DNA from: Gammaproteobacteria bacterium
Lineage (GTDB): Bacteria > Pseudomonadota > Gammaproteobacteria > JBCCGL01
Direction of reading: 5' to 3'
NCBI GenBank assembly: GCA_965277715.1
Contig: OZ255836.1
Span: 576,001-640,000, forward strand
DNA length: 64,000 nt
In this document: in pieces, positions 1 through 29,299 of the stretch
Position numbering within the stretch: the stretch's first letter is position 1
How the letters are laid out: each line of letters begins with the position of its first letter
Translations under genes and position numbers: made by a program
Notes under the pieces: generated by a model
Told to the model about the DNA's origin: nothing
Database searches by the model: none
What the model saw: the letters and a program-made list of their open reading frames with translations, nothing else

Positions 1-1256
1 ATACCAGTGACGGGTGTGCCAGCGCTGCCCTGCACGGTGAACCGGGTCTGTGCATTGTCTTTAACCACCACCGTATCTTCCTGGTTAAAGCCGATAATGC
101 TGACGTTTTCCTGGAGTTCCACGCTGTTTTTCAGGATATAGGCGGGTCGGCCATTAAAGGTATTTTGTGGGTTATCGCCCATGCCGCCCCAGGCGCCACT
201 GGCAATATCCGAGCCGATAAAGGGCGTGGTGATGGCAAAGCTGTCGGTAGTCACATCGCTAATGGTGTAGGTGCCGCTGTAGTAACGGCTCTGGCCGATC
301 AACACAGTCGTATTGTCACTCAGGCCGTGACCGGCAGAGGTGCAGACCACCTTGGCGCCGGTTTCAGTCGCTGAGTCGGCAAAGGCGCTAATGGCGCTAT
401 AACTTGTGGTGCCCCATTTGGCCGTACCATCGGCAATAAAGTGGGCATTGATATCAAAGCCGTTGGCGGTGACATTGCTGATGCTGTAGTGACCGTTGTG
501 ATGGGCGCTTTGGGTAATCACAATCTGGGTGCCGTCGTCGAGTCCGTGGGCGGCGGCGGTACAGGTGACTTTGGTATTCGGTGAGTTGGTGGCGTTGGCA
601 AAGGCGGTGATTGCCTGCAACACCTGCCAGCGACCGCTATCGTTTGGCTCGTAGGCACCCTGGATGGGGCTGAGGGCTATGGTGCTGTTGGCGGCAATGA
701 CCGTGTCGGTGCCGAGGTTAAACACCTGGTCGAATTCCGCCTGGCTGTGAATTTTAACCGTGTTGGGGCCGAGCAGCAGGGTGTCCCTGGCCGCCGGGGC
801 CTCCAGCTTGCCGCTGCCATCGATAACGATATCGCCCGCATCGGCCCCAGAGAAAGTCAGGTCGAAGGCCAGCATGAAATCGGTGCTCGCTACCTTCTCG
901 GCCAGTTTTTCATCATTGGCGGCGTAAAGGGCAAAGAGTTCGCCGGTTTCCAGAAAAAAGCCGATTTCGTAGATGGGGTAAACATTGGGCACATCGGTGC
1001 CCTCGTCTTGCAATATGGCGGTTAAATGTAACTGGTTTTGCCGGTTGCCGATCAGTTCACCACCGGCAACGACAACCCGCTGGATTTCGTGTTTGAGCGC
1101 CGTCATGTCTTGGCTGGCGGTATAGGGGCCACTGCCCGCGCCGGCTTGACCATCGCCCACCGCCACCTCGGCGATGCGTGCAGACATGCCACGGTTTTTG
1201 GCATCGATCAGGGCGGTGATGCCCGCGTCGGTAATTATTGGGGTTAGTGTGCTCAT
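1..1256 (-). CDS. Tail fibre protein, copy 3 (5' part only; runs off the window)
   Basis: ATG at 1256 (MSTLTPIITDAG...). Bases 1-1256 match 4950-6205 at offset 4949 with scattered substitutions (e.g. TAILQDEGTDVPNVY vs TATLQDEGADVPSVY). Absent from the ORF track because no stop lies in the window. Confidence 0.9.
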   Translation of the reverse strand, partial: MSTLTPIITDAGITALIDAKNRGMSARIAEVAVGDGQAGAGSGPYTASQDMTALKHEIQRVVVAGGELIGNRQNQLHLTAILQDEGTDVPNVYPIYEIGFFLETGELFALYAANDEKLAEKVASTDFMLAFDLTFSGADAGDIVIDGSGKLEAPAARDTLLLGPNTVKIHSQAEFDQVFNLGTDTVIAANSTIALSPIQGAYEPNDSGRWQVLQAITAFANATNSPNTKVTCTAAAHGLDDGTQIVITQSAHHNGHYSISNVTANGFDINAHFIADGTAKWGTTSYSAISAFADSATETGAKVVCTSAGHGLSDNTTVLIGQSRYYSGTYTISDVTTDSFAITTPFIGSDIASGAWGGMGDNPQNTFNGRPAYILKNSVELQENVSIIGFNQEDTVVVKDNAQTRFTVQGSAGTPVTG

Positions 1257-1330
1257 TGGTTTATCTTTTCTGTTGGGGAACAGGAGGTTGTTTGGGATCG
1301 GGATGGTGTTATATGGTTATATGGTTATAT

Positions 1331-1405
1331 GGTTTGCACCAGACTCAGGTTAAAGCGGTAGTGACTGCGCACTGGCTTGAGCGCATCGATGGCCTGGTGC
1401 AATTT
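1331..1405 (-). pseudogene. Remnant of the 3' end of the gpI-like baseplate gene
   Basis: Translates as KLHQAIDALKPVRSHYRFNLSLVQT, matching gpI KLHQVIDAVKPVRSHYSFSLSLVQT at 11256-11330. Confidence 0.8.
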
Positions 1406-1500
1406 AGTGTGAAAACTGGACGATGAGTTTGCCTGCCGGTAATGGCAGAGTTTGCTGTCGCATACCTTGAAACAAGGCAATCACTGTCCCTAATCAACCA

Positions 1501-2106
1501 TTAGAGCAGAACAGGGCCAACAAGAGAGAATAGATAGGCGCTGCCGGCACTAGTCCCTCCCGTGTCTTCAAGATGAGCCCCAACGAGGGCGTGATCATCA
1601 CTGAGAGATACCGAAATACCGAAATAATCGGAGGTCTGTTTGTCATCCGCCTGTAGCTTATGCTCTTGTGCCCAGGTATTACCCTCCCGGCGGAAAATAT
1701 AGGCACTGCCGGCATGAGCCTCTCCCGTATCTTCAAGATAAGCCCCAACGAGGGCGCGATCACCACTGAGAGACACCGAATAACCGAAATAATCGCCGGC
1801 CTGTTTGTCATCCGCCTGCAGTTTATACTCGGGTACCCAGGTACTACCCTCCCGGCGGAAAATATAGGCACTGCCGGCATTATCCTCTCCCGCATCTTCA
1901 CGATAAGCCCCAACGAGGGCGCGATCACCACTGAGAGACACCGAACGACCGAAATAACCACTGAGCTGTTTGTCACCCGACAGCAGTTTATACTCTTGTA
2001 CCCAGACATAACCCACCCGGCGGAAAATATAGGCACTGCCGGCATCAGCCTCTCCCGCATCTTCACGATAAGCCCCAACGAGGGCGCGATCACCACTGAG
2101 AGACAC
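1501..2106 (-). CDS. FG-GAP repeat beta-propeller fragment, probably the severed C-terminus of fibre 2
   Basis: About four 55-aa (165-bp) repeats of FGxSVSLSGDRALVGA...AGSAYIF. Starts mid-repeat at a GTG. A fifth homologous repeat lies inside fibre 2 at ~2525-2690. Confidence 0.75.
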   Translation of the reverse strand: MSLSGDRALVGAYREDAGEADAGSAYIFRRVGYVWVQEYKLLSGDKQLSGYFGRSVSLSGDRALVGAYREDAGEDNAGSAYIFRREGSTWVPEYKLQADDKQAGDYFGYSVSLSGDRALVGAYLEDTGEAHAGSAYIFRREGNTWAQEHKLQADDKQTSDYFGISVSLSDDHALVGAHLEDTGGTSAGSAYLFSLVGPVLL

Positions 2107-2257
2107 CGAATCGAAGTACCATTCCTAGTTCATATGGCCGGGGTTTATCCAAGTTACCAGGTAATGTCCTTTGCGGTGAGATATCGCCCCTGACGGCACA
2201 GTATCTCGCCCTCTGTATCGGACCACACCCGCCAACGGGACCCGTGACCGCTAATAG

Positions 2258-5200
2258 TCATCTTGGTCTCTTATACCGAATCAATACTCCATTCCTGGTA
2301 TCTGCCGTACCGGCGTTTAAATTACGCCATGTTATAACTACCGGCTTCCAATGCCAGTGCGCGTTTACGGTGAGATTTCCTTCTATGACCGCATTGCCAT
2401 CTACCTCTAGATTATCATCACCGGGATCCGAATTGCCGCCTATATGCACACCGCCGTTGACCGCTAATTTTGCAGCGGGGCTGGCGGTGCCGATACCGAC
2501 TTTGCCCTCTTTAATCACCCCCTGCAGTTGATACTCGTGTACCCAGGTACTACCCTCCCGGCGGAAAATATAGGCACTGCCGGTATTAGGCCCTTCCGTA
2601 TTTTCACCATGAGCCCCAACGAGGGCGCGATCACCATCGATAGACACCGAATAACCGAAACATTCGTTGACCTGTGCTTTAATCGCCTGCAGTTTCTGTT
2701 GCGTAGCGTTAACGACACTGGTATCAAGCCTACCGATGATTGATCCACTGATCGTGCCACTCACCGACAGGTCGCCACTAATATGGATATTGCCAGCGCT
2801 ATCAACCGTTAACGCTGCCGTGCCATCCTCTTTGTATAATTGCAAAGCACCCCCGTCAGTAATACTGATACGGTTGGTGCCACCGGCATCTTTTAAGGTT
2901 AAATTACCGTTATCCGGCAGGCTGATACGGGCAGTGCCATCGGCATCTTTGATATCGCCGCCACTGACCTTCAGATCACCCGTAACTGTGGCATCGCCAT
3001 CCACCTCTAAATTATTATCGCCGGGATTTGAAACGCCGCCTATATGTACACCCCCGTCGACCGCTAATTTTGCAGCGGGGCTAGCAGTGCCGATACCGAC
3101 GTTGCCATTTTTAATCACCATCTGGACGGTGCCGCCAGTACCGGCGTTCAATGCACCATCGTTATGGCTACCGCCCTTAAACCACGCGAAGTTATAGGCA
3201 GTTCTAAAATATTGGGTGTGACTCTGTATTCCTATACCGTAATCGGTGCCCCACATGTCAATCATCTGACTCGTATTTTGGTCGAAGCCCATCTTACCAC
3301 TCACCACCAAGTCACCACTGAGGTCGATATTGCCAGAGGTATTAACCGTTAACGCCGCAGTGCCACCGTCCTCGTGCAATTGCAAGGCACCCCCGTCAGC
3401 AATACTGATACGGCTGGTGCCACCGGCATCTTTTAAGGTTAAATTACCGTTATCCGGCAGGCTGATACGGGCAGTGCCGCCGGTATCTTTGATATCGCCG
3501 CCACTGACTTGCAGGTCACCCGTGACGGTGGCATCGCCACTCACCGCCAGGTCACCACTGAGGCCGACATTACCTGTGCTATCAACTGTTAACGCCGCCG
3601 TGCCACCGTCCTCGTGTAATTGCAAGGCACCCCCGTCAGCAATACTGATACGGCTGGTGCCACCGGCATCTTTTAAGGTTAAATTACCGTTATCCGGCAG
3701 GCTGATACGGGCAGTGCCATCGGCATCTTTGATATCGCCGCCACTGACCTTCAGATCACCCGTGACGGTGGCATCGCCATCCACCACTAATTTTGCATCG
3801 GGGTTAGTGGTGCCGATACCGACATTGCCCTCTTCAATCACCATCTGGACGGTGCCGCCAGTACCGGCGTTGAATTTTGCATCGTTATGGCTACCGCCCT
3901 TAAACCACGCGAAATTGTGCTCGGTTCTAAAATATTGAGTATGAGTCTGTACTCCAATACCGAACACAGTATTCCACAAGTTAATCATTTGTCGCACAGT
4001 TGCGCCGAAGCTCGCCTTGCCATTAGCCACCGACAGGTCACCACTGAGGCCGACATTACCTGTGCTATCAACCGTTAACGCCGCCGTGCCACCGTCCTCG
4101 TGTAATTGCAAGGCACCCCCGTCAGCAATACTGATACGGTTGGTGCCACCGGCATCCTTTAAGGTTAGATTACCGTTATCCGGCAGGCTGATACGGGCAG
4201 TGCCGCCGGTATCTTTGATATCGCCGCCACTGACTTGCAGGTCACCACTGAGGCTGACATTACCTGTGCTATCAACCGTTAACGCCGCTGTGCCACCGTC
4301 CTCGTGTAATTGCAAGGCACCCCCGTCGGCAATACTGATACGGTTGGTGCCACCGGCATCCTTTAAGGTTAGATTACCGTTATCCGGCAGGCTGATACGG
4401 GCAGTGCCGCCGGTATCTTTGATATCGCCGCCACTGACCTTCAGATCACCCGTGACGGTGGCATCGCCACTCACCGCCAGGTCACCACTGAGATCGACAT
4501 TGCCCGTACTATCCACCGTTAACGCTGCCGTGCCATCATTTTTGTTCAACTGCAAAACGTCGCCATCGGGCATTATCTGGCTGTTGCTACAATTCTCTGC
4601 CGTGCAGTTAAACAACCGCAGCAGTGCCTTGTCGCAACTGTGCGCGCCGCTGCCGCTGGCAGTGGCGATGCAGTCGTAAACAGTCAAGGTGGAGTGGTCG
4701 CATTGATACACCCCGCCGCCATTGGCCGCTTTGTTGTGGTGCAGTTGGGTGGCGGTGATCTGGGTGACATTATTGGCACCATACAGGCCACCACCATTGG
4801 CGCTGGTGTGATGATTAATGATTTTGCAGTTCAGTTCAGACTGTTCGCAGTAGTCCAGAAAAAAAGCGCCGCCCTGGTCAGTGCCGGTTAAGGCACCGCC
4901 CAAACCATTAACCCCACCACGGCCATCAAAACTCCAGCCACGCAACTGAATACCAGTGACGGGTGTGCCAGCGCTGCCCTGCACGGTGAACCGGGCCTGT
5001 GCATTGTCTTTAACCACCACCGTATCTTCCTGGTTAAAGCCGATAATGCTGACGTTTTCCTGGAGTTCCACGCTGTTTTTCAGGATATAGGCGGGGCGGC
5101 CATTAAAGGTATTCTCCGGGTTATCGCCCATGCCACCCCAGGCGCCACTGGCAATATCCGAGCCGATAAAGGGCGTGGTGATGGCAAAGCTGTCGGTAGT

Positions 5201-6205
5201 CACATCGCTAATAGTGTAGGTGCCGCTGTAGTAACGGCTCTGGCTGATCAACACAGTTGTATTGTCACTCAGGCCGTGACCGGCAGAGGTGCAGACCACC
5301 TTGGCGCCGGTTTCAGTCGCTGAGTCGGCAAAGGCGCTAATGGCGCTATAACTTGTGGTGCCCCATTTGGCCGTACCATCGGCAATAAAGTGGGCGTTGA
5401 TATCAAAGCCGTTGGCGGTGACATTGCTGATGCTGTAGTGACCGTTGTGATGGGCGCTTTGGGTAATCACAATCTGGGTGCCGTCGTCGAGTCCGTGGGC
5501 GGCGGCGGTACAGGTGACTTTGGTATTCGGTGAGTTGGTGGCGTTGGCAAAGGCGGTGATTGCCTGCAACACCTGCCAGCGACCGCTATCGTTTGGCTCG
5601 TAGGCACCCTGGATGGGGCTGAGGGCTATGGTACTGTTGGCGGCAATGACTGTGTCGGTGCCGAGGTTAAACACCTGGTCGAATTCCGCCTGGCTGTGAA
5701 TTTTAACCGTGTTGGGGCCGAGCAGCAGGGTGTCCCTGGCCGCCGGGGCCTCCAGCTTGCCGCTGCCATCGATGACGATATCGCCCGCATCGGCCCCAGA
5801 GAAAGTCAGGTCGAAGGCCAGCAGGAAGTCTGTGCCCGCTACCTTCTCGGCCAGCTTTTCATCATTGGCGGCGTAAAGGGCAAAGAGTTCGCCGGTTTCC
5901 AGAAAAAAGCCGATTTCGTAGATGGGGTAGACGCTGGGTACATCGGCGCCCTCGTCTTGCAATGTGGCGGTTAAATGTAACTGGTTTTGCCGGTTGCCGA
6001 TCAGTTCACCACCGGCAATGACAACCCGCTGGATTTCGTGTTTGAGGGCTGTCATATCCTGGGTGGCGGTATAGGGGCCACTGCCCGCGCCGGTTTGACC
6101 ATCGCCCACCGCCACCTCGGCGATGCGTGCAGACATGCCACGGTTTTTGGCATCGATCAGGGCGGTGATGCCCGCGTCGGTAATTATTGGGGTTAGTGTG
6201 CTCAT
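2258..6205 (-). CDS. Tail fibre protein, copy 2 (1315 aa)
   Basis: P2 gpH-like baseplate-anchoring N-terminus (ITDAG...AVGDG...YEIGFF), GG-rich beta-helix-like region, GNVGIGT-type shaft repeats, one FG-GAP repeat near the C-terminus. Confidence 0.88.
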   Translation of the reverse strand: MSTLTPIITDAGITALIDAKNRGMSARIAEVAVGDGQTGAGSGPYTATQDMTALKHEIQRVVIAGGELIGNRQNQLHLTATLQDEGADVPSVYPIYEIGFFLETGELFALYAANDEKLAEKVAGTDFLLAFDLTFSGADAGDIVIDGSGKLEAPAARDTLLLGPNTVKIHSQAEFDQVFNLGTDTVIAANSTIALSPIQGAYEPNDSGRWQVLQAITAFANATNSPNTKVTCTAAAHGLDDGTQIVITQSAHHNGHYSISNVTANGFDINAHFIADGTAKWGTTSYSAISAFADSATETGAKVVCTSAGHGLSDNTTVLISQSRYYSGTYTISDVTTDSFAITTPFIGSDIASGAWGGMGDNPENTFNGRPAYILKNSVELQENVSIIGFNQEDTVVVKDNAQARFTVQGSAGTPVTGIQLRGWSFDGRGGVNGLGGALTGTDQGGAFFLDYCEQSELNCKIINHHTSANGGGLYGANNVTQITATQLHHNKAANGGGVYQCDHSTLTVYDCIATASGSGAHSCDKALLRLFNCTAENCSNSQIMPDGDVLQLNKNDGTAALTVDSTGNVDLSGDLAVSGDATVTGDLKVSGGDIKDTGGTARISLPDNGNLTLKDAGGTNRISIADGGALQLHEDGGTAALTVDSTGNVSLSGDLQVSGGDIKDTGGTARISLPDNGNLTLKDAGGTNRISIADGGALQLHEDGGTAALTVDSTGNVGLSGDLSVANGKASFGATVRQMINLWNTVFGIGVQTHTQYFRTEHNFAWFKGGSHNDAKFNAGTGGTVQMVIEEGNVGIGTTNPDAKLVVDGDATVTGDLKVSGGDIKDADGTARISLPDNGNLTLKDAGGTSRISIADGGALQLHEDGGTAALTVDSTGNVGLSGDLAVSGDATVTGDLQVSGGDIKDTGGTARISLPDNGNLTLKDAGGTSRISIADGGALQLHEDGGTAALTVNTSGNIDLSGDLVVSGKMGFDQNTSQMIDMWGTDYGIGIQSHTQYFRTAYNFAWFKGGSHNDGALNAGTGGTVQMVIKNGNVGIGTASPAAKLAVDGGVHIGGVSNPGDNNLEVDGDATVTGDLKVSGGDIKDADGTARISLPDNGNLTLKDAGGTNRISITDGGALQLYKEDGTAALTVDSAGNIHISGDLSVSGTISGSIIGRLDTSVVNATQQKLQAIKAQVNECFGYSVSIDGDRALVGAHGENTEGPNTGSAYIFRREGSTWVHEYQLQGVIKEGKVGIGTASPAAKLAVNGGVHIGGNSDPGDDNLEVDGNAVIEGNLTVNAHWHWKPVVITWRNLNAGTADTRNGVLIRYKRPR

Positions 6206-6224
6206 TGGTTTATCTTTTCTGTTG
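4370..6224. repeat. Long direct repeat (constant fibre 5' region); other copies at ~9300-11157 and 1-1275
   Basis: Near-identical by eye at offsets +4933 and -4949, and includes the upstream leader (TTGGTTTATCTTTTCTGTTGG on the + strand). Confidence 0.9.
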
Positions 6225-6314
6225 GAGGGGCAGGGGGTGGTTGGATTGCTGAGTAGCTGCTTGCCTCGTTTTCTGCGGGTGTCTTTATAGCAATTTGCTC
6301 TTGATAAGCGCTAA

Positions 6315-11138: not shown

Positions 11139-11183
11139 TGGTTTATCTTTTCTGTTGGGGAACAGGAGGTTGTTTTGAGTTGT

Positions 11184-12119
11184 TTATAATGAAGCCGCCA
11201 TATTAAACCGCTTATAACTAACCGCCTTGCTACTGACAGCCAGCCGCATATAACCGGTTTGCACCAAACTTAAGCTAAAGCTGTAGTGGCTGCGCACTGG
11301 CTTGACCGCATCGATAACCTGGTGCAGTTTATTGTTGAGCGCCGCCGTACCCGCACCAGGGGTGCTGGCGTTGACCAGAAACTCCAGGTGAAAGGTGTGG
11401 GGCAGACCCCTGGGCGTCTGCTGCCACCATTCGGTGAGGGTGATGCTGATATAGGCAAAGGAGCGTTCAAGCGCATTTTGTACACTGGCCCGGGTGCCTT
11501 TGTGTTGATGAATAAAGGCGCTTTTGCGGATCAGGTTCCGGCGGCGGATGGATTCTTCCACCGGGTCATTGGCATTGCTGAACCAGGTATCACCGGAGGT
11601 GGCCCAGGCCAGCCAGGGCAGTAAGGCCTGTGGGCAGCGAGAAGGGTCCCACAGGCTGTCGATCAGTACCGGTAACTGGTTCAGGCGGTCACCCGTCAGC
11701 GACAGTTGCCGCTCCAATCTGCTGGCATTGGGGGGCAGCAGATGCACCTCGCTTTTTAAGGGGCGACTGGCGTACAGGCGTTGGCTTTGTGTGGTATCAG
11801 TCACCCACACCAGCAGGTGACTGGCACCGTCTGGAATGACGGTATTGTCAAACCGATGGAACAGCGGCCGCTGGTAGGTATAGACAGGTGCCTCCTTGGT
11901 ACCGGTATTCAGGGAACTGTATTCGGCAATTTTACTGTGAACGGCCAGCTTTTCCTGTGCGTTGCGCCCCCAGTGGAGTTCGATAACACGCAGGTTCCGG
12001 TGACTGTGATCGTGACAGAGGATCAACGGCCCATTGAGCACACCGGTGCGGGTGGCCGTATTCACAAAGGCAATGGTATCGACCTTCTGGTTAAGGGGCA
12101 CAGTGGCGGTTATCGACAT
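11184..12119 (-). CDS. Phage P2 gpI-like tail/baseplate protein with extra N-terminal domain
   Basis: LLPPNASRLERQL...LWDPSRCPQALLPWLAW...HQHKGT...EWWQ...DAVKPVRSH motifs after a ~120-aa extension. Confidence 0.9.
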   Translation of the reverse strand: MSITATVPLNQKVDTIAFVNTATRTGVLNGPLILCHDHSHRNLRVIELHWGRNAQEKLAVHSKIAEYSSLNTGTKEAPVYTYQRPLFHRFDNTVIPDGASHLLVWVTDTTQSQRLYASRPLKSEVHLLPPNASRLERQLSLTGDRLNQLPVLIDSLWDPSRCPQALLPWLAWATSGDTWFSNANDPVEESIRRRNLIRKSAFIHQHKGTRASVQNALERSFAYISITLTEWWQQTPRGLPHTFHLEFLVNASTPGAGTAALNNKLHQVIDAVKPVRSHYSFSLSLVQTGYMRLAVSSKAVSYKRFNMAASL

Positions 12120-12227
12120 GAGAACTCACTTTTCAGATTGGGTTGAAATAAGACCGCTGGCCCCGAATTAAACACGCCAGAAAAACACACAAGGGCCAAG
12201 CCCTCCAGCCGTATAGCCATATAACAA

Positions 12228-13631
12228 TTAATCAATAGAAACACTCACCCCATACAACATTTCACCAAATTCATTTTTGCTAAAAGCAATCAGATGCGTG
12301 GCCCCGGTGGGCACTGGGGTATTGGCCGCAAAGTGATGGGTCAGTGCACTGCCTTTAACGATTTCGGCAATGGGCGGCAGTGCATAACGAACACTGACCT
12401 GGGTATCGTTCAGCGTATTGTTGGTGGCTGTGACCACACCGGTGGTATTGTCCAGGCTGTAATCCTTACCTTTCAGGTAGATAATTTTACCGTCGTTACT
12501 GGTGATCAACAGGGAGGCGACCGGCTGGTGGTCGAGGGTAAACGTGTCCGTTGCAAAGGTGTAGTTTTTAGCGCCCCTGGGCAGTTTTTCGGCATTGTTG
12601 GCACCCCAGTAAAGGATGTAGTGGGTAATATCATAGTCAATATCGGCGGCGGTGAGGGTCACAGTGCCTTCAATCTCGCCGGATGTACCACTATTGGTAA
12701 AGGCGATAGCCTCGACCATATTGTTTGGCGTACTGTAGGGGTGTTCCTGGTAATCAATGGCACCCAGGGTGCCGTAGGGGGCCTGGTAGCGCTCAATCAG
12801 CAGATCGGTGGTAGGCTGGTGCAGTTCGACATTTTGCACACCCGGCTGGTAAAAGGCGGCAAATAAACCCGCGCGGGTAATATCGATGCCGATACCATGG
12901 TGTTTGTCGAGAAAAGCCTGGGCGACCGTACTGGCAGCGGTCAGGACTTCATCCGCCCCGACACCGGGGAACATCTGCACGGTGGCGTCGACGGTAAAGG
13001 GGATAATCTCTGCCGAACTGACCCGAATCTGATCGGTAATGGGGCGTATTTTATCGTGGTTAAGGGCCGCACTGACCGTATCGACTAAATCGGCCGCATT
13101 GCCATTGCCTTCTTTGCTGAGCAGTCGTACATCCACAATACCCGGCGATTCGGAGTAGACGGATACGTCTTTGACCAGGGCTGAGGCCGACAGGGCATGA
13201 AACACATAGGCGCCCTCGGGACCGGCGGTGGAAAAGCCTTCAAAAGCCAGTTGGGTGCGGGTGCGCAGGTGTTCGTCGTCTTCATAGGTGGGCGCTATCG
13301 GTGGCGAGGCGTCGGGGTCGCCGGGGTCGGTTTGCAGGCGACCGATATTCACCAGCGCCGCCAGGTTATCCAGGTTGCTGCCACTGGCGGTGGCCAGCAT
13401 TACCCCGCGTGCGGCCTCGTTGATGCGCTGGCGCAGGTGCATTTCCCGGTAGGCGACAACTTCCAGCAGTTTACTGATGGGGTCGCTTTCGGGCAGGTCG
13501 TTGACGATTAATTCCGGTGCCAGGTTCTGCAGCTCGGTTTTGGTCGCCGCCAGCAGGGTTTCGTAATCCAGCGTCTCGATGATGCTGGGGGGCGGGAGTT
13601 TGGAGAGGTCGATGGTGGTGAACAGGCTCAT
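12228..13631 (-). CDS. Phage P2 gpJ-like baseplate protein with C-terminal extension
   Basis: IDLSKLPPP, ESDPISKLLE..AYRE, FEGFSTAGPEGAYVFHALSA, IRPITD motifs plus ~170 extra C-terminal residues. Confidence 0.92.
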   Translation of the reverse strand: MSLFTTIDLSKLPPPSIIETLDYETLLAATKTELQNLAPELIVNDLPESDPISKLLEVVAYREMHLRQRINEAARGVMLATASGSNLDNLAALVNIGRLQTDPGDPDASPPIAPTYEDDEHLRTRTQLAFEGFSTAGPEGAYVFHALSASALVKDVSVYSESPGIVDVRLLSKEGNGNAADLVDTVSAALNHDKIRPITDQIRVSSAEIIPFTVDATVQMFPGVGADEVLTAASTVAQAFLDKHHGIGIDITRAGLFAAFYQPGVQNVELHQPTTDLLIERYQAPYGTLGAIDYQEHPYSTPNNMVEAIAFTNSGTSGEIEGTVTLTAADIDYDITHYILYWGANNAEKLPRGAKNYTFATDTFTLDHQPVASLLITSNDGKIIYLKGKDYSLDNTTGVVTATNNTLNDTQVSVRYALPPIAEIVKGSALTHHFAANTPVPTGATHLIAFSKNEFGEMLYGVSVSID

Positions 13632-13765
13632 GGGAACCCCTGGTTAGTTGTTGGTTGTCAATTGTTATATTGCTATATGGCTATATTGCTGGGCGTCACT
13701 GTCCTACTTTGATTGCTACGTAGGCTGGTATCCAGCACATGAAAGCAGGGTGAACCACCTTGCCA

Positions 13766-13792
13766 CTGGATTCCCGCATTTGTGGGAATGAC
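13766..13792. repeat. REP/dRS3-like palindrome
   Basis: CTGG-ATTCCC-gcatttgt-GGGAAT-GAC (ATTCCC-N8-GGGAAT) in the intergenic region upstream of gpJ. Confidence 0.55.
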
Positions 13793-13820
13793 GGCTGGGG
13801 ATAGGCCCAGAATGGCGAAT

Positions 13821-14333
13821 TTAAGCCGATGTGAATACAGCCTCCTCACCCTGTCCATGCTGTTGAACTTTCCAGGTGCCGGATTTCATCAGCAGGAGGT
13901 CGGGCACAGGTGGGGAACCGATCGGTGGTGGCGGTAGCGCCATCATCGCAGGTACCGTCGCGGTAACGGTAAATGAACCACTGGCATTATCTAAAACAAC
14001 GCCTTGCGATAGAGTTGAAGATTTCTCGGATGCCTTGAGGCCACTTAAGGTAACTTTCAACAAGGTGCCATCCACACCGCCAACCTTAGGTGCTACCGTC
14101 GAAAATGCGCCATGGGTCATTGTGTGATAAGAATCGGTAACACTGTCCATGGCCGTGATGATATCCGACACCAACACGGCGGCTTTGCTGCCGCCAACCG
14201 TTAATTTGCTGCCCGAACCATTGATCTCAACGTCAAAAGAGTTGGCGGTACCGGCGGGGGGGCTGGTTCCCCAGCCCCAATCCGCCGCTGCGGTTAAGCG
14301 TATAATCGCACCCTTTACCAAGACGTTAGCCAT
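13821..14333 (-). CDS. Putative contractile injection system spike-tip (PAAR-equivalent) protein
   Basis: Coupled directly behind gpV, 170 aa, beta-rich, with a PAM..PPPP..PPVPD..SGTW segment reminiscent of CIS spike-tip proteins. The call rests mainly on position. Confidence 0.5.
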   Translation of the reverse strand: MANVLVKGAIIRLTAAADWGWGTSPPAGTANSFDVEINGSGSKLTVGGSKAAVLVSDIITAMDSVTDSYHTMTHGAFSTVAPKVGGVDGTLLKVTLSGLKASEKSSTLSQGVVLDNASGSFTVTATVPAMMALPPPPIGSPPVPDLLLMKSGTWKVQQHGQGEEAVFTSA

Positions 14334-15280
14334 CAGCTGACATCCAGGGTGCCGGTCACTTTGACATCGCCTTCGATGGCAATGTTCTTGGCGGTGATGT
14401 TGAGATCCTGCTGGTCGGCATTAATCTTGACAGCCCCATTTTGATTAATCGTGATTATCGTAGACCCCGCACTGAACTCTATTTTTTTATTTCGATTAAT
14501 CGTGACCTCCGTAGCCCCCGCACTGAGCACCATTTTTTCCTCATCTTTAGCACTGGCATCAATCAGCACTTTAACTTTGGGGTCACTCGCCGAACCGGCA
14601 ATCAGGGTGGTTTTTGCTTTTGACACCAGTTGTAACTCGCCGCCCTTACCACTGGTGGTGTCGATCTCAAGGGCGATATCCGGCTCTGTTGTGCTGCCCA
14701 CTTTTAAGGCCAGCCTGGCGGTGCCTTCGCTGCTGCCCTCGGGGTCCATGATCGCGGTAAGGTTCAGGGACTTTTCAGCCTTTGGGCTGCTTTTGATTTC
14801 CAACCCCAGTTCGTGTTTGCTGCGGTCGTAGTGAATGTGGGTGCCGTCTTTATAGAAGCGTTGGTGAATGAGTGCATCTGTGTCCTTGGGAAAAAGGTCT
14901 CGTTTTATTACCCCGCTGGCGTTTTCACCGTCGAAGGTAACGCTGGCCCGGTACAGGGCACCTATCACAATACCCAATGCCAGGTCACCCGAGGGTGCCA
15001 CGACCAGTACCTGTTCGTGCAGTTCCGGCTGCCACCACTCGCCATCGTATCCGGCGCGCAGGGTTACCCAGGGCATCCAGTTGCGGGTAAAGCTGTCTGC
15101 TGTTTTACCGCCCACCTGCACCAGTACGTGGGGCACATCTATTGGTGCCTTGCTGTCATCAGGGCCTTTTTCGACGATTTTGCCGGTATGCACTATGCCA
15201 CTGAGCATGGTGTTGTGCCGACTGAGCGCACCTTCCATTTCAAGGGAGGACTGCTCGACCGTATCGTCAATAAGTGGCAT
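14333..15280 (-). CDS. Baseplate assembly protein V (gpV/VgrG-like spike)
   Basis: WMPWVTLRAG..WWQPELHEQVLVVAPSGD..GIVIGALY OB-fold motif, DGTHIHYD, beta-strand repeat C-terminus. Confidence 0.9.
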   Translation of the reverse strand: MPLIDDTVEQSSLEMEGALSRHNTMLSGIVHTGKIVEKGPDDSKAPIDVPHVLVQVGGKTADSFTRNWMPWVTLRAGYDGEWWQPELHEQVLVVAPSGDLALGIVIGALYRASVTFDGENASGVIKRDLFPKDTDALIHQRFYKDGTHIHYDRSKHELGLEIKSSPKAEKSLNLTAIMDPEGSSEGTARLALKVGSTTEPDIALEIDTTSGKGGELQLVSKAKTTLIAGSASDPKVKVLIDASAKDEEKMVLSAGATEVTINRNKKIEFSAGSTIITINQNGAVKINADQQDLNITAKNIAIEGDVKVTGTLDVS

Positions 15281-15383
15281 GGGCGTTTACTCTTGTTAGT
15301 GACTGATGAACACTGCTAAAAATTGGCATTTCCGCCTCTGCGGGCGTCACGAAAGATACATTTTTAGTGCTGCGCTGATGGTG

Positions 15384-15722
15384 TTATTGGATGGTCAGAT
15401 TTTCCAGGCGGATAATCCGATTGTCCGGCAGGTAGTGCCCTTCAATGGTGAAGTCAATACGCCCCTCGGCCACGTCGTTAACGGCCACCTGGCTCAATTT
15501 TAAACGCGGTTCGTAATACCCCAGGGCTTCGGTAATGGCCACCTGGATAGTCGCCACCAGGTTTTCGTTAACGGGTTGATCCAGTAGGTACATCAGCCGT
15601 GATCCATAGCTGCGGCGCATAATACGGGTGCCAATAGGGGTTGACAGGATGTCTTTGATGGATTGTTCCAGGTGCTTCATGCCATTGAGAACTTTACCTG
15701 TTTGCGCGTGCATGCCTTTCAT
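15384..15722 (-). CDS. Baseplate protein W (gpW/gp25 family)
   Basis: GMHAQTGK..HLEQSIKDILSTPIGTRIMRRSYGS..YEPRL; ATG at 15722 chosen. Confidence 0.92.
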   Translation of the reverse strand: MKGMHAQTGKVLNGMKHLEQSIKDILSTPIGTRIMRRSYGSRLMYLLDQPVNENLVATIQVAITEALGYYEPRLKLSQVAVNDVAEGRIDFTIEGHYLPDNRIIRLENLTIQ

Positions 15723-15756
15723 TGGGAATGTCTCTGTGTGGGGGTTGGTGCGGTGC

Positions 15757-16284
15757 TTATGCGCTGACAGGCGCAATATAGCTGGCCGGAAGCACCAGCC
15801 TGGATCGCTCGCCCAGCATGTCCAACAGGATAATCACCCGTTCTTTACTGGTGAATGCCATCAGGATTCCCTGGTAGTGTTGCATTGGCCCATCGGTTAT
15901 CTGTACTGCATCGCCCGACTTGAGCCGGGACTTCAGCATGCATTGAACCCTGTGTTCATTTTCATTGTTTATAAATGCCGACACTAATAAATCCGGCACT
16001 TTGGCGGGAGTATGGTCGAAACTCACAATGCTGGAAACGCCGATTGTCGAGCGTATGGGTGACCAGTTGTCCTGCGTTGTGTCCAGGTGGATAAATAAGT
16101 AACGTGGAAACAGTGGTTCTATGGACACGATGTCCTTTGACCGGTGCCGACGTTTCTGGCTGATTAATGGCAGGTATGTCTGGTAACCCTGGCGTTTCAG
16201 GTTTTCCTCGGCAGATCGTTCTTTGTGGGGCTTGCTGTGAATGAGGTACCAGGATTTATTGTTTTCTTTCTGTTCCGCTGGCAT
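15757..16284 (-). CDS. rfaH: RfaH-like (NusG paralogue) transcription antiterminator
   Basis: WYLIHSKPHKE..AEENLKRQGY..EPLFPRYLF..WSPIRSTIGVS NGN domain and KOW (GDAVQITDGP); ops element upstream. Confidence 0.9.
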   Translation of the reverse strand: MPAEQKENNKSWYLIHSKPHKERSAEENLKRQGYQTYLPLISQKRRHRSKDIVSIEPLFPRYLFIHLDTTQDNWSPIRSTIGVSSIVSFDHTPAKVPDLLVSAFINNENEHRVQCMLKSRLKSGDAVQITDGPMQHYQGILMAFTSKERVIILLDMLGERSRLVLPASYIAPVSA

Positions 16285-16409
16285 TGTATTTTTCTCTAAA
16301 ATATTGGCCAAAAAAATACTGGGGGTACTGATGCGTCACCCCTGGATTATTGGAAAAGGAGGGGTGAGGCAGGTCAGTGTGCGTTGTGGTTTCTGTTTTT
16401 CATAGAAAC

Positions 16410-16421
16410 CACGCTACCGCC
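16410..16421 (-). promoter_or_regulatory. ops element (RfaH loading site) in a JUMPstart-like leader
   Basis: Minus strand reads GGCGGTAGCGTG, preceded by hairpin TGCGA-ttgtat-TCGCA. Confidence 0.88.
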
Positions 16422-16564
16422 CTGCGAATACAATCGCATAAGAATAAAAAATTTATTTCTGTCCGTGATTAAAAAATCGCGGAGAGTGCAAACTACCCAG
16501 CCAATCTTTTAAAGCGCCTGTATATTGTGTTGTTGCGCGATGTTTATCTGCCTGGTTGATTTAA

Positions 16565-16628
16565 ATTATATGCAGTTATGATTTTAGTACTTCATGTTTT
16601 GTCATTTTTTTTTTCAAATTTTGTCATT
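16565..16628 (-). promoter_or_regulatory. Putative activator-dependent promoter for the rfaH/baseplate operon
   Basis: TATAAT at 16565-16570 (minus), weak -35, two direct AATGACAAAAnnTGAA boxes with 22-bp period. Confidence 0.55.
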
Positions 16629-16898
16629 TATTTGTTCGTAAATAGCATCAGGTAAAAATATACGATGGAGAATTCTAAAAAATCGTCATCGGGTCTCCTC
16701 TGGCGATATCAGGAATTTACCTTTTTTCTATGTGGGCAGCGCAGGTTGTTATGGAACAGGCACGAAGTAATTTATACTTCTATAAGGTTTAAATAATACG
16801 CTGTGTGTTAATAACACGATCAGCCAACTCAGTTATAAAGTTAATCGATGCATTTGTGAACCCCGAAAATTATTTCGTGCACGTTACTTAATGATTGA

Positions 16899-17661
16899 TT
16901 ATCGAGTGTATTTTTTTCGATATTTACCCGGTGGTAAATTAAAATATTTTTTAAAGGCGTCAGAGAAATAGTTGGGATTTTTGTAGCCAACCCGATAGCC
17001 AATATTCTCAATGGGCAGCCCGGTTTTCCTACAGAGCCTTTCGGCTTCTTTCATGCGCTTCTCAACTAACCACTGGTGAATACCCATACCCAATATGTTT
17101 TTAGAAGCTTGCGCCAGTGTATTCCGATTAGTCCCTATTTTATGGGCCAGGTCTTTCTGAGAGCAGTTTAACGATAGATCGACTAACAGATGCTGGCAGG
17201 CTTTTTGTACTAGTTTTTGCTCGGCGTTCTGTGTCTTTTTCTCTACACTATCCGCTGCAGAAATATAATTCTGCGCAATTGATCTGCTGCCCTCCCGGTG
17301 GTTCCGGGTGTTATGGCGGCTGAGGCAGGATCTAACCCGAATAAGCCATTCGGGGGAAACAACAGGGTACGCAATGTAATCCCATACATCGAGGGAGAAA
17401 ACACGCTCTCTCGATTCCAGGTTATCAATTAGCGCCAGAATAGCCGTGCTATCAGGTTTTTTCCTTGTTATTGAAACTAACGGGTCAAAATTTCTCAAGC
17501 AATCGACAATGATCAAATCATTTTTTTTTTTCAGGCTTGGCATCCCAATCCGTCAAAGTACAACGAAGCACCTCATACCCTTGTTTGCGTAACAACACTG
17601 GCATTAGTGTTTCTTCGCTATTTTCATCACTAACGATTAAAATATTGTATTTTTTATTCAT
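16899..17661 (-). pseudogene. Receiver-like + AraC HTH regulator, frameshifted at an A11 tract
   Basis: The 5' frame MNKKYNILIVSDE..LLRKQGYEV..KPEKKK* (17661-17518) joins DLIIVD..AraC HTH (VGYKNPNYFSDAFKKYFNLPPGKYRK) if the A-run at 17521-17531 has 10 instead of 11 bases. Confidence 0.8.
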
Positions 17662-17929
17662 AATTATTATTTTTACAACCTTACTGCCAGTAGATTAAAA
17701 ATACTAACCACGCCCCAGGAGCATGGAAAGATTCGAGACTCTGGCCTTAAACGCCTACCTATTATTGTTTGTATAATAAATCAGAGTGATTCGATAGGGC
17801 TAAACTCCTTAATAATAAAAACAGATACGAAGTTATAATTAAAAGGTGTTACCTGTCCTGATTTAAACGGGCATCAGTAAACTTAATTCTGGATCAAGGG
17901 TGTTTTTATTCGCAGGCGTTAGCCCTACG

Positions 17930-18195
17930 GTGAGTGAGTCAGTTTATTGTTTTCATGGAAATACGCTACCGCCCTACGAGTACAATCGTATAAAAATAAA
18001 AGCCATCCACACAGCCTTTTAAAGGTTATCCGCATTGCGTTGCTGTGTGGCACTCAATTGTTGAGTTGATTTAAAGTATATGTAGCCCGGTTTTTAGCAC
18101 TTCATTTTTTGTCATTGGTTTTTCATATTTTGTCATTTATTTATCTACAAATAACACCAGGGGGGAAATATGCCACGACAAGCTCTAAAAAATTA
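17930..18195 (-). repeat. Diverged duplicate of the rfaH promoter/leader (~16365-16685)
   Basis: Collinear shared blocks: ops, CTTTTAAAG, GTTGATTTAAA, -10 (TATACT at 18075-18080), two AATGACAAAAnnTGAA boxes with 21-bp period, TCTAAAAAAT. Confidence 0.85.
17962..17973 (-). promoter_or_regulatory. Second ops-like element
   Basis: GGCGGTAGCGTA on the minus strand, preceded by hairpin TACGA-ttgtac-TCGTA. Confidence 0.75.
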
Positions 18196-18365
18196 ATCTG
18201 AGATCAGGTGTAAAGGCATACCTGATAATAGTAGTACCATTTGGCGAAATGATGTGCAAAGCAGAGGGGAGGGGAAAGAGGTATAAAAAAGAGCCAAATT
18301 GGCTTTTCCACAGTAGATCAGTCCTGAACCCGACAGGCTCCTGATATGTATTAACCTGTAACTAA

Positions 18366-18614
18366 TTGTTTCAGAAGGTTTTTTCTAATGCATTAGCAAA
18401 ACTGAAGATCAACTGGGCGGAGAAACAGCGGAAACGGTGGGTAAAAAGTCAATGTCGGCATTTACGGGAAGGTAAGCATCATGGTGTTATTGATGCGATC
18501 AAATTGGTCTGTAAAGGCAGTCGAAGCAAGCTGTTGAAAAGAGAACGAGAGTGCTTTATCAAAAACCTACCAATATCGTGGGACAAACGGTTTTCAAGGT
18601 CGATCAGTAGGTAA
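18366..18614 (+). pseudogene. Transposase fragment (ISKra4/UPF0236-like)
   Basis: RKRWVK..LREGK..VIDAI..SKLLKRERECFIKNLPI resembles the C-terminal region of these transposases; short and lacking a catalytic core. Confidence 0.5.
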
Positions 18615-18715
18615 CGATAGCAGTTTGAACCACTACGGGGAAACCTGTTCAATACACTGAACTAAAATATGCTTTGGCTGCCTATCTGTGCTTATCATTG
18701 CAGGTGAGCAGTTAG

Positions 18716-29286: not shown

Positions 29287-29299
29287 AACAGGTCTCTAA

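Follow-up and report, generated by a model that had tools for sequence, protein, structure and literature searches.

The closest described counterparts of the locus analysed here are the tail module of R-pyocins and phage P2 (V-W-J-I-H-G, FI-FII-E-T-U-D) and the eCIS exemplified by Afp and PVC. A third group, the Tail_P2_I eCIS (eBAP3/eBAP5), has been catalogued in PMC12923769; in the excerpted text of that source, loci are scored by DUF4157, Pvc16_N, and CIS_tube. The same text describes loci with several fibres, including evolved duplicates, and fibres that bear S74 chaperone domains and beta-propeller modules. Tail_P2_I eCIS, multi-fibre loci, and RfaH/ops control have each been published already.

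The locus occupies positions 1-18195 of a 64-kb stretch of DNA (the window) and is the front half of a headless, phage-tail-like contractile-particle operon that carries an RfaH-type switch of its own and three tail fibres related to one another. Its host is a sponge-associated relative of a bryozoan symbiont. The particle is a blend of two known particle kinds and not a wholly new one: the tail is of the P2 lineage with eCIS accessories, as indicated by the gene content of relatives, the matches on contigs of equal size, and the Pvc10-like fold of the spike tip.

Like R-pyocins and P2, the locus holds no head genes, its W, V, J, and I proteins are 31-42% identical to those of P2, and its relatives carry FI, FII, an E-type chaperone, U, X, and D in the same order. 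However, W precedes V here, and the Pvc10-like tip has a gene of its own; gpJ and gpI are approximately 180 and 125 residues longer, respectively; the fibre N-terminus is of the tail-collar type (PF12571) rather than of the P2 gpH type, with no H match; and gpD is followed in the relatives by a Pvc15-type ATPase and DUF4157 proteins. Control by RfaH/ops and AraC replaces that by Ogr or SOS, and gpR, gpS, and lysis genes have no matches here. With Afp and PVC, the locus shares the tip, a leader ops, and an operon-linked RfaH homologue resembling AnfA1 of Afp (PMC6748792, in excerpt), while its relatives share the WHD+AAA Pvc15-type ATPase and the DUF4157 proteins. Contrary to these eCIS, the tubes of the relatives are of the P2 FII type and not of the T4_gp19/CIS_tube type, the hub gpD and the spike gpV are separate instead of fused in a VgrG, the cluster lacks a Pvc16_N terminator, and the gene order is P2-like. 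The sheath is 30% identical to P2 FI, versus 22-23% to the sheaths of other ATPase-bearing loci. Compared with the Tail_P2_I eCIS, as the excerpts of PMC12923769 present them, the position of the fibre genes downstream of the Tail_P2_I gene is the same, but here the whole tail core, and not the adaptor alone, is of the P2 type. Since such systems are already catalogued there, the term "undescribed" used in the original prediction applies at most to this particular combination.

Gene content of the window and fibre array

The genes from the regulator to the fibres share one orientation, as predicted (Table 1), although the fibres amount to two complete genes and one truncated by the window edge. 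The reading frames of W, V, the tip, J, I, and both complete fibres are uninterrupted. A tblastn search of the whole window with 31 P2 proteins matched W, V, J, and I only, with no match to head, terminase, integrase, lysis, or replication proteins, and on the right flank, which comprises about 35 large ORFs, all 20 that were scanned are of host type. The anticipated P2-type baseplate module, free of capsid, terminase, and integrase genes and bordered by ordinary host genes, is thus borne out within the window. Promoter-like sites are scarce in 1-15400 (2 versus 12.6 expected), and both lie on the opposite strand. The stretch occurs in no RNA run.

Table 1. Features of positions 1-18195, listed in minus-strand order.
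Feature	Position	Strand	Remarks
Leader/promoter copy 1, 5' of regulator	17960..18195	-	two ATGACAAAA direct repeats and ops
ops 11-mer GGCGGTAGCGT in leader copy 1	17973..17963	-	
Regulator N-terminal piece, 47 aa	17518..17661	-	stop directly after A11 run
A11 homopolymer (T11 on + strand)	17521..17531	-	junction of regulator pieces
Regulator C-terminal piece, 214-aa ORF	16899..17543	-	rest of receiver-like domain and AraC-type HTH
Leader/promoter copy 2, 5' of rfaH	16400..16683	-	two ATGACAAAA repeats, A10 tract between them, exact ops
A10 tract between ATGACAAAA repeats, leader copy 2	16614..16605	-	
Exact ops GGCGGTAGCGTG	16421..16410	-	12-mer, single exact occurrence
RfaH paralogue, 175 aa from ATG	15757..16284	-	start in ORF list: TTG 16311
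gpW/gp25 sheath-initiator wedge	15384..15722	-	PF04965 60.9 bits; phrog_43
gpV spike, 315 aa	14333..15280	-	TIGR01644; repeat-bearing C-terminal extension
Spike tip, Pvc10/CIS_spike_tip kind	13821..14333	-	PF19267-type, fold match
gpJ baseplate wedge	12228..13631	-	PF04865 73.9 bits; ~180-aa C-terminal extension
gpI	11184..12119	-	PF09684 (Tail_P2_I) 126.5 bits; TIGR01634 113.6 bits; ~125-aa N-terminal extension
Fibre A, 1607 aa	6315..11138	-	collar-type N-terminus, repeated shaft and knob modules, C-terminal Peptidase_S74 chaperone
Fibre B, 1315 aa	2258..6205	-	differing C-terminus with one FG-GAP repeat
FG-GAP-like fragment, four 55-aa repeats	1494..2096	-	no proper start; begins mid-repeat after stop
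gpI 3'-end remnant, 80 nt, ahead of fibre C	1331..1410	-	86% to 11256-11335
Fibre C, N-terminal at least 418 aa	3..1256	-	runs off window

Among the baseplate proteins, gpW is 41% identical to P2 gpW, and residues 4-291 of gpJ are 42% identical to P2 gpJ. The spike gpV scores 60.3 bits with TIGR01644 (cut-off 46.75) and matches the PDB entries 3qr8 (P2 gpV) and 4s37; its gene bears a 51-nt tandem repeat. The tip of the window itself reaches 15.9 bits with PF19267 (E 0.012), and a homologue 69% identical to it clears the threshold (30.2 versus 24.1 bits). An AF2 model of the tip (pLDDT 75.5) had a single Foldseek match in the PDB at E<=0.001, Pvc10 of PVC (6p22_D, E 4.3e-5, TM 0.57/0.68), and the fold is accordingly predicted to be Pvc10-like. 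Full-length matches to gpJ occur in 3 of the 201 genomes of the bacterial family; in viral contigs, neither the long gpJ form nor, with two queries, the particle family was found.

The multi-fibre array is real, and its N-termini are common to all fibres (97-99% identical). The first 1968 nt of fibre B are 98.8% identical to fibre A, and fibre C, which shares their ribosome-binding region, is 97.3-97.5% identical to both over 1256 nt. The FG-GAP-like fragment consists of 165-nt tandem repeats and matches no Pfam family at E<=0.01. That contractile tails of this type normally carry one main fibre gene, as had been assumed, is an overstatement, since tailocin and eCIS loci with several fibres have been published (PMC10598620, PMC12923769, and PMC6629978).

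Relatives and the probable remainder of the operon

The closest relative is Ca. Endobugula sertula. Its C58 holds AraC, an exact ops, RfaH, W, and V, and its C9 holds the tip, J, I, a DUF4157 protein, a fibre, the sheath, two FII tubes, TMP, U, X, D, and the ATPase, with a second DUF4157 protein further downstream. In G023, a single contig extends from W through D to the ATPase and a DUF4157 protein. In both, the ATPase lies directly 3' of gpD and is followed by non-phage genes. It belongs to the eCIS type of ATPase: its identity to the ATPases of certain loci is 36-41%, versus just 22-23% for the sheaths of those loci, and the single locus of this group that was scanned has its ATPase adjoining Pvc16_N, which is absent from the clusters of the relatives.

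The gpJ and gpI of the window lie on a contig of 4,294,796 bp, and a contig of this size gives the best non-self matches to the sheath (P0004, 86%) and the ATPase (P0129, 64%) of Ca. E. sertula; at least five further sheath/ATPase pairs lie on equal-size contigs. Together, the two relatives and the equal contig size suggest that sheath, tube, ATPase, and DUF4157 genes adjoin the operon of the window. The tailocin/eCIS hybrid proposed there gains from the ATPase and DUF4157 proteins after gpD in the relatives and from the Pvc10-like tip, with the sheath and tube absent from the window.

A plain R-type tailocin, which would puncture the membranes of related bacteria without any payload, the ATPase and DUF4157 genes of the relatives being unrelated to it, is the alternative that survives best, although we consider it unlikely. 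All structural genes seen are of the P2/R-pyocin type in nearly the R-pyocin order, the FII-type tubes, the separate gpD and gpV, and the missing Pvc16_N agree with it, multi-fibre tailocins are known (PMC10598620, in excerpt), and canonical eCIS present elsewhere in these genomes could own the accessories. Nevertheless, the ATPase stands straight after gpD in both relatives, DUF4157 and p221 genes stay linked to P2-type genes in three differing arrangements (L005/L006, L027, and L045), and the further sheath/ATPase pairs recur on equal-size contigs. The Pvc10-like tip, control by RfaH/ops as in Afp and PVC (excerpted text of PMC6748792), and the failure to find an SOS-type or lysis cassette with the queries used also argue against it.

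Control region and its variation among strains

The predicted linkage of an AraC-type regulator, an RfaH paralogue, and ops to the operon is confirmed and kept in Ca. E. sertula, where the order AraC-ops-RfaH-W-V is the same. The RfaH paralogue scores 157 bits with TIGR01955 (cut-off 144.5), ranks E. coli RfaH (6e-17) above NusG (1e-7) among PDB sequences, and is 61% identical to the product of the Ca. E. sertula gene adjoining W-V. The RfaH module is not shared by the whole family: the 766 nt ahead of W in L044 contain none, and G023 and G161 have no close paralogue.

The two leaders are approximately 80% identical and 1510-1552 nt apart. They contain the only two copies of the ops 11-mer GGCGGTAGNNT in the 64 kb, both on the coding strand (0.40 expected by chance; two copies were reached in 6 of 100 shuffles). 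The only A/T runs of at least nine in the window, A11 and A10, also belong to this region. The A11 run splits the regulator. Its C-terminal piece (HTH_18 72.6 bits; HTH_AraC 46.3 bits) is 49.5% identical to the Ca. E. sertula orthologue, and the N-terminal piece is 33% identical to its counterpart over 42 aa (E 1.9e-4). Pfam detects no receiver domain in the regulator; an intact paralogue of 250 aa is 46% identical to the C-terminal piece, and the in-frame paralogue has an A7 run and a receiver fold at the N-terminus (TM 0.81-0.84). The Ca. E. sertula regulator has an A9 run at the equivalent codon, with a register shift in the same direction. This poly-A-split regulator, in the same register in both species, is new here. 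It resembles MxiE of Shigella, an AraC-family protein that activates an injection apparatus. MxiE is encoded in two overlapping frames that meet at a homopolymer run and, according to the excerpted text of PMC1088944, is made by transcriptional slippage. By contrast, the candidate slippage run (A9-A12) lies here in the receiver-like N-terminal domain, and the tract also varies at the DNA level between strains.

Both tracts vary among metagenome strains: A11 has gained one base in X4, and A10 has lost one in X4, X6, and X7. Leader copy 1 has a 21-nt deletion at 18107 in X4, a 19-nt deletion in X4 and X7 reaches into the ops of leader 2, turning it into GGCGGTAC..., and rfaH has a 199-nt deletion in X6. 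Because of these ops and rfaH deletions, the control module may be decaying. A relic, in which the cluster is unexpressed and the damage to regulator, ops, rfaH, and gpI represents stages of erosion in host-associated bacteria, would extend this to the whole locus. None of the four tract-covering sequences (window/X1 A11, X6 A11, X4 A12, and E. sertula A9) has an in-frame regulator, the fibre array contains a fibre fragment and a gpI remnant, the gpI of Ca. E. sertula has an in-frame stop, and the L045 contig has lost J, I, and the fibre. This reading is nonetheless rather improbable. The structural genes of the window are open, 11146-15776 is free of frame-breaking indels in X4 and X6, and the 43 gap letters in the X4 contig fall without exception at or past 16396. 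Furthermore, 29 of the 37 listed coding differences between strains are synonymous and 8 are not, both regulator halves are open and conserved in two species whose regulators are about 50% identical, and the fibre N-termini have been held nearly identical.

An ordinary P2-like prophage, of which this would be the tail half with the head, terminase, and integrase genes immediately to the left, is very improbable: the window edge does fall inside the fibre array, and short-gpJ P2-like prophages are common in the bacterial family (24 of 27 genomes with a gpJ match), but both relatives run from fibre to sheath, D, ATPase, and non-phage genes, 50 kb of Ca. E. sertula and 40 kb of G023 hold no matches to P2 head, terminase, integrase, lysis, or replication proteins, the right edge is a host-type regulator with the RfaH module instead of R/S or lysis genes as in P2, and the long gpJ is not found among viral contigs.

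Proposed working of the system

A headless P2-lineage particle with eCIS accessories, an RfaH/ops circuit, homopolymer gating, and three competing fibres is jointly the best explanation, with a probability of approximately 0.6. On this view, the window holds the control region of a single long operon and the half of it that encodes baseplate and fibres, with W, V, J, I, and the fibres as its P2-lineage parts, and with the sheath, FII tubes, E, T, U, X, and D presumably to the left. The Pvc10-like tip, the Pvc15-type AAA ATPase, and the DUF4157 proteins would have been gained in a small gammaproteobacterial family, and point to a protein-loading injector rather than to a plain membrane-puncturing tailocin; the particle would accordingly load a payload.

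The receiver-AraC activator is expected to bind paired ATGACAAAA repeats in each of two near-identical promoters, one driving its own gene and the other rfaH and the structural genes. Because ops is present on both transcripts, the RfaH paralogue of the operon would load onto RNA polymerase, carry it through a promoter-poor operon of at least 30 kb, and reinforce its own synthesis. The slippage-prone A11 and A10 tracts, the first within the activator gene and the second separating the activator sites, may hold the circuit off in most cells, through DNA tract-length changes, transcriptional slippage, or both. The three fibres, with a common baseplate-binding N-terminus and proximal shaft and differing distal parts, would all be used and compete for the same sites, thereby widening or varying the target range.

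The gene run and its fibre array

Contractile particles are usually classed either as payload-free R-type tailocins, which descend from P2 or other phages, or as eCIS of the Afp/PVC type, which possess their own tube, VgrG, terminator and loading ATPase. The element considered here is a single co-oriented run on the minus strand of the window (1–18195), called from the ORF list and three profile libraries. Its baseplate set of gpW, gpV, gpJ and gpI is complete, with Pfam and NCBIfam matches above their cut-offs. When 31 phage P2 proteins (record AF063097) were compared with the 64 kb by tblastn at E ≤ 0.01, W, V, J and I were matched with E values of 3e-21, 4e-12, 1e-67 and 3e-23 and 31–42% identity, while the P2 portal, terminase, scaffold, capsid, R, S, integrase and replication proteins gave no match. 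The P2 lysis proteins Y, K, LysA and LysB found no counterpart in the window or in the loci of its relatives, in a search that divergent lysis genes would escape. To the right of the run, the 20 large ORFs scanned out of approximately 35 are all of host type (DUF547, EamA, PotA/D, phosphoribosyltransferases, helicase, HtpX and others). The original prediction had described a run of regulator, rfaH, W, V, tip, J, I and fibres in a headless window with a host right flank, and this description is borne out by the ORFs, the profiles and the P2 search.

Genes and gene pieces of the contractile-tail run, with window coordinates
Feature	Coordinates	Strand	Basis or remark
Regulator, two pieces	17661..17518 (47 aa) and 17543..16899 (214 aa)	minus	HTH_18, 72.6 bits
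RfaH paralogue	16284..15757	minus	TIGR01955, 157 bits (cut-off 144.5)
gpW	15722..15384	minus	ORF list and profile libraries
gpV	15280..14333	minus	TIGR01644 above cut-off; matches PDB 3qr8 (P2 gpV) and 4s37
Spike tip, 170 aa	14333..13821	minus
gpJ	13631..12228	minus
gpI	12119..11184	minus
Fibre A, 1607 aa		minus
Fibre B, 1315 aa		minus
Fibre C, first 418 aa		minus	continues past the window edge

A long gpJ (residues 1–466) occurs in three of 201 sampled genomes of this bacterial family, and the gpJ matches of 24 other genomes are shorter or partial, many of them spanning residues 1–288 as in P2. Among viral contigs, the gpV profile yielded only two weak matches (32% over approximately 95 aa), a 45-mer of gpJ yielded none, and none of 88 pattern matches to the gpJ profile was confirmed. 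Within the host flank, an 899-aa SNF2-type helicase (SCO1167/SCO6262 model, 573 bits, under the cut-off; weaker matches to ZorD and DrmD) adjoins a 328-aa protein with SWIM and HTH domains at 28300–31999, and the two may form a defence-type pair.

The fibre genes are close copies of each other at their 5' ends: the first 1968 nt of A and B are 98.8% identical, the visible 1256 nt of C are 97.3–97.5% identical to both, and the ribosome-binding region of 23 nt is the same in all three. Past residue 650, the fibres are built from two alternating modules, the same pair in differing copy numbers, and they end differently, fibre A in a Peptidase_S74 chaperone domain and fibre B in an FG-GAP repeat followed by a different tail. 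The gap between B and C holds four more FG-GAP repeats lacking a start, together with 80 nt of the 3' end of gpI, which read as scars of a duplication or capture at the I–fibre junction. A fibre switch of the invertase type was rejected, given that the fibre region contains no inverted repeats of at least 20 nt; variation would arise instead by unequal recombination or gene conversion. Fibres A and B found no match at E ≤ 0.01 in a PDB sequence search. In all four public runs whose contigs were compared with the window, the depth of the fibre N-terminus is 2–3 times that of the neighbouring single-copy contig, a ratio that is not a copy number and that hints at an array not much longer than three. 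One fibre gene is visible in each relative, whole in Ca. Endobugula sertula and G023 (two related genomes described below), and cut by contig ends in G161 and at L044, a further relative genome and locus. Multi-fibre tailocin and eCIS loci have already been published (PMC10598620, PMC12923769, PMC6629978), and the available text of the first two also describes S74 domains and propellers on eCIS fibres, as well as eCIS baseplates of the Tail_P2_I type that accommodate several fibres. The array is an example of this known theme rather than a novelty.

Relatives and affinity to eCIS

The bryozoan symbiont Ca. E. sertula was the sole close relative by gpJ (79%) in one scan of species genomes, and its locus is broken across two contigs, C58 and C9, in its assembly. 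Contig C58 carries the AraC regulator, an exact ops, RfaH (61% identical), W and V. On C9 follow the tip, J, I, a DUF4157/eCIS_core protein, a 117-aa ORF, one 1261-aa fibre, the sheath, two FII tubes, the tape measure, U, X, D and a 695-aa WHD+AAA ATPase, with a second DUF4157 protein farther downstream than the ATPase. The gpI gene of this contig (17081–18013 of the stretch L005), 55% identical, has one in-frame stop in a reading frame that is otherwise full-length. Similarly, one contig of G023 (Marinibactrum halimedae in one source) encodes W, V, tip, J, I, fibre, sheath, tube, tube, an E-type chaperone, TMP, U, X, D, ATPase, a 221-aa protein and a DUF4157 protein. P2 head, terminase and integrase queries found nothing in 50 kb of Ca. 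E. sertula or 40 kb of G023. The sheath of these relatives is 30% identical to P2 FI (E 5e-57), their tubes belong to PF04985 (Phage_tube FII, 187.5 and 133.6 bits), and gpU, gpX and gpD are separate genes of P2 type. A rearranged metagenome contig of 7173 nt (L045) holds the DUF4157 protein, the 221-aa protein, a partial V, W, the C-terminal part of the sheath, a tube and the chaperone; J, I and fibre are absent from it.

A single 4,294,796-bp contig is the recorded location of both gpJ and gpI of the window, and the best non-self matches to the Ca. E. sertula sheath (P0004, 86%) and ATPase (P0129, 64%, WHD+AAA) are recorded on a contig of the same size. On the basis of this equal size, the genome of the window probably encodes both proteins, and synteny in the relatives would place them directly to the left of the window.

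The N-terminal 480 aa of the ATPase have matches in 10 of 399 sampled Gammaproteobacteria. At five such loci, the ATPases are 36–41% identical, four of the five have a sheath match at merely 22–23% identity and the fifth has none, P2 tube, U, X and D match at none of them, and a Pvc16_N protein (172.5 bits) adjoins the ATPase at the one locus that was profile-scanned. Judged by these comparisons, the ATPase is of the eCIS kind.

The available portion of PMC6899500 (Chen et al.) gives the eCIS core set as Afp1/5, 2/3/4, 7, 8, 9, 11, 15 and 16. Of this set, the locus family lacks Afp16, the Afp1/5 tube and the fused VgrG (Afp8), and possesses Afp15, gp25, J and a LysM-type X; it also carries the DUF4157 marker of Geller et al. 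(PMC8213781, as far as its accessible text goes). The DUF4157 proteins are seen in the relatives only, not in the window, and the Afp15/Pvc15-type AAA ATPase is present in the loci of Ca. E. sertula and G023. Unlike Afp and PVC, with their fused VgrG, the clusters of the relatives have separate gpD and gpV genes. PF14065 (Pvc16_N, the Afp16-type tail terminator) does not occur in the P2-type clusters; Ca. E. sertula, G023 and G161 have their matches to it elsewhere, on contigs C2, C47 and C396, respectively. On C2 of Ca. E. sertula, two further sheath matches (105656–111546) lie near the Pvc16_N match, which suggests a second, canonical eCIS in this symbiont; the ATPase query matched only the P2-linked copy in that genome.

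The tip is rare, with 12 relatives among 1.84 billion representatives. A homologue 69% identical to it passes Pfam CIS_spike_tip (PF19267), the window tip itself scoring 15.9 bits. Since an AlphaFold model from a 3-sequence alignment was unusable (pLDDT 31.8), a 13-sequence alignment was used (pLDDT 75.5, pTM 0.74). In a Foldseek comparison of this model with the PDB, one of 142 listed matches reached E ≤ 0.001, namely 6p22_D, PVC Pvc10 on a gp5 helix (E 4.3e-5, TM 0.57/0.68). The PDB sequence search with the tip returned nothing meaningful. The family homologue and the predicted fold support the view that the window tip is a Pvc10-type, and hence eCIS-type, part. The tips that occupy this slot in Ca. 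E. sertula and G023 show no detectable relationship to the tip family of the window (hhalign probability 3%).

The original prediction had proposed a tailocin/eCIS hybrid, combining a P2-type baseplate with AraC/RfaH/ops control and a multi-fibre array. Its hybrid character is upheld through the relatives and the fold of the tip, while its full novelty is not. Because a P2-type core is combined with an ATPase of the eCIS kind, DUF4157 proteins and a Pvc10-like tip, we file the element as one that would work like a cargo-loading eCIS built on a P2-type tail, and not as a member of Afp/PVC in the strict sense.

The split regulator and the ops-bearing leaders

An A11 run interrupts the regulator of the window. 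Its Ca. E. sertula orthologue (approximately 50% identical) is interrupted at the matching codon by an A9 run, and the frame is displaced in the same direction in the two genes. These are the only two orthologues available for comparison, and in each of them the upstream piece reads open from a start codon up to the run, and the downstream piece stays open through to its end. Ca. E. sertula has in addition a 250-aa paralogue, intact and not linked to the locus, with an A7 in frame at that position; it is encoded in a housekeeping neighbourhood on C14 (1489–2241 of the stretch L041). Although Pfam Response_reg was not detected in the regulator or in this paralogue, the Atlas model of the first 125 residues of the paralogue resembles Response_reg folds (TM 0.81–0.84). 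The 47-aa piece has no significant BLASTP match to the intact paralogue, and it is identified as the N-terminus of the regulator because of its match to the Ca. E. sertula orthologue and its position.

Only two A/T runs of at least 9 nt exist in the window, the A11 of the regulator and, in the rfaH promoter, an A10 that separates the activator-site repeats, and the A9 of the regulator is the only such run in 50 kb of Ca. E. sertula. Both window tracts vary in length across metagenome strains, and the coding tract is in frame in none of the four sequences that cover it. The split could be that of an old pseudogene, against which the conservation of both regulator halves argues. A slippage-prone gate, acting through variation of the DNA tract, transcriptional slippage or both, would fit the two orthologues better than a pseudogene. 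Its closest parallel is mxiE of Shigella, which is subject to transcriptional slippage and where, like in the split regulator, the frames overlap at a homopolymer run (PMC1088944, from its available text); two overlapping frames at an A/T run of at least about 9 nt, kept in orthologues, are likewise found here (n = 2 orthologues). A slippage gate would be fitting if, as is probable, the producing cell dies on releasing the product. No RNA run is among the public runs that contain the window stretch.

With NF006534, the second RfaH equivalog model besides TIGR01955, the RfaH paralogue scores 103.4 bits, below the cut-off of 124, and 55.2 with NusG TIGR00922, and among PDB sequences it matches E. 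coli RfaH best (6e-17, versus 1e-7 for NusG). An exact ops 12-mer, GGCGGTAGCGTG, lies at 16421..16410, 126 nt upstream of the rfaH ATG, and recurs upstream of rfaH in Ca. E. sertula. The 11-mer GGCGGTAGNNT, which is the ops form used for PVC operons (PMC6748792, available text), has two copies in the 64 kb, both on the coding strand, one in the leader of the regulator and one in that of rfaH; 0.40 would be expected, and at least two copies appeared in 6 of 100 shuffles. These leaders, of approximately 280 nt and 80% identity, precede the regulator (~18190–17960) and rfaH (~16683–16400), and both contain a pair of ATGACAAAA repeats at a distance of 21 nt and a TATAAT-like box, which ops follows after ~100 nt.

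Promoter-like sites are depleted between gpW and the window edge, where 12.6 would be expected and 2 occur, neither of them on the operon strand. A terminator-like hairpin with a T-rich tail lies within the operon on the minus strand (12191–12210), in the 109 nt that separate gpJ from gpI. The depletion and the hairpin fit an operon in need of a processivity factor. Scans of the control region for sigma-70 promoters and terminators remained at chance level (9 versus 7.4 and 3 versus 3.8, respectively), and an Rfam scan of 15300–18800 gave no JUMPstart-type match, the best being a chance-level viral UTR (E 0.75).

The same role as that of the RfaH paralogue is played in Afp by AnfA1, an operon-linked RfaH homologue with ops, so the RfaH/ops layout is already known for eCIS from the accessible part of PMC6748792. 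Within the particle family of the window, RfaH/ops control is not general: the locus L044 has neither RfaH nor ops within 766 nt upstream of W, and no close RfaH paralogue was found in G023 or G161. A 40-residue fragment on C14 of Ca. E. sertula (32822–32938) is 49% identical to the N-terminus of the RfaH paralogue and lies approximately 8 kb from the 250-aa regulator paralogue. In the window, an 85-nt dispersed repeat (16804–16888 and 27941–28025, 81% identical, inverted) has one copy between the regulator stop and the rfaH leader. Contig depth also rises at 16723–16757 and 18305–18387, with many loose ends in all four runs, which indicates that short repeats flank the regulator cassette.

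Combined reading and strain variation

Three features appear most original on sequence grounds: the union of a complete P2-type core with a Pvc15 ATPase, DUF4157 proteins and a Pvc10-type tip; the swapping of the tip between close relatives; and the conserved poly-A split of an activator within a duplicated, ops-bearing leader. The literature covered, which did not extend to the supplementary locus tables of PMC12923769, PMC8213781 and PMC6899500, contains no description of this locus or of a P2-core particle with a Pvc15 ATPase.

Taken together, the observations allow a tentative reading, to which we give a probability of about 30%. A tail of P2 lineage would have been turned independently into a cargo-loading injector by means of a Pvc15-type ATPase, DUF4157 proteins and a Pvc10-type tip. 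In the clade of sponge and bryozoan symbionts, two hypermutable or slippage-prone poly-A tracts would act as a contingency switch, gating a self-reinforcing loop of receiver-AraC, RfaH and ops. Only rare cells would then fire, releasing particles with a mix of three fibres, possibly against cells of the animal host.

A P2-type tail core bearing an eCIS ATPase, DUF4157 proteins and a Pvc10-type tip would show that such accessories are portable between tail lineages, which bears on both the evolution and the engineering of injectors. PVC expression is heterogeneous from cell to cell, a behaviour left unexplained in the available text of PMC6748792, and for such heterogeneity in eCIS the poly-A split conserved in the activator supplies a mechanism that can be tested. 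The locus is carried by a bacterium associated with a sponge and by the Bugula symbiont linked to bryostatin. Microscopy has shown phage-tail-like structures in symbionts of bryozoans, without a genetic basis in the part of PMC7794531 at hand.

Eight public runs from four studies contain the stretch, seven of them with at least half of the sampled words; five are labelled sponge metagenome, and the other three may include the source of the window itself. Strains were compared through the contigs of four runs (X1, X4, X6 and X7) over 9500–18700. Forty substitutions were listed and 134 further ones counted. Of the listed ones, 39 were classified (18417, outside genes, was left out) as 2 intergenic and 37 coding, the latter 29 synonymous and 8 non-synonymous, with 28 rows from the fibre N-terminus that may mix paralogous copies; gpI and gpJ alone account for 6 synonymous and 3 non-synonymous. 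Over 11126–16086, X6 differs only by an 8-nt intergenic insertion and by a replacement of 95 letters by 98 in the gpV repeats that keeps the frame.

All 43 gap letters of X4 fall at or beyond 16396. In X4 and X7, ops is changed to GGCGGTAC... by a deletion of 19 nt, a 21-nt deletion in X4 removes one promoter repeat, and a 199-nt deletion in X6 removes the start of rfaH. By these patterns, purifying selection acts on the structural genes and the switch is unstable or eroding, which counts against simply reading the locus as a ready weapon. Two joints in X1 (16885/18527 and 16890/18341) were not trusted, as their sides measure merely 21–29 nt.

At the right edge of the locus, a basic 82-aa ORF with no Pfam match lies on the opposite strand (18366–18614). 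Contig depth is raised and contigs branch over this stretch in all runs, and the ORF may be the remnant of a repeated element.
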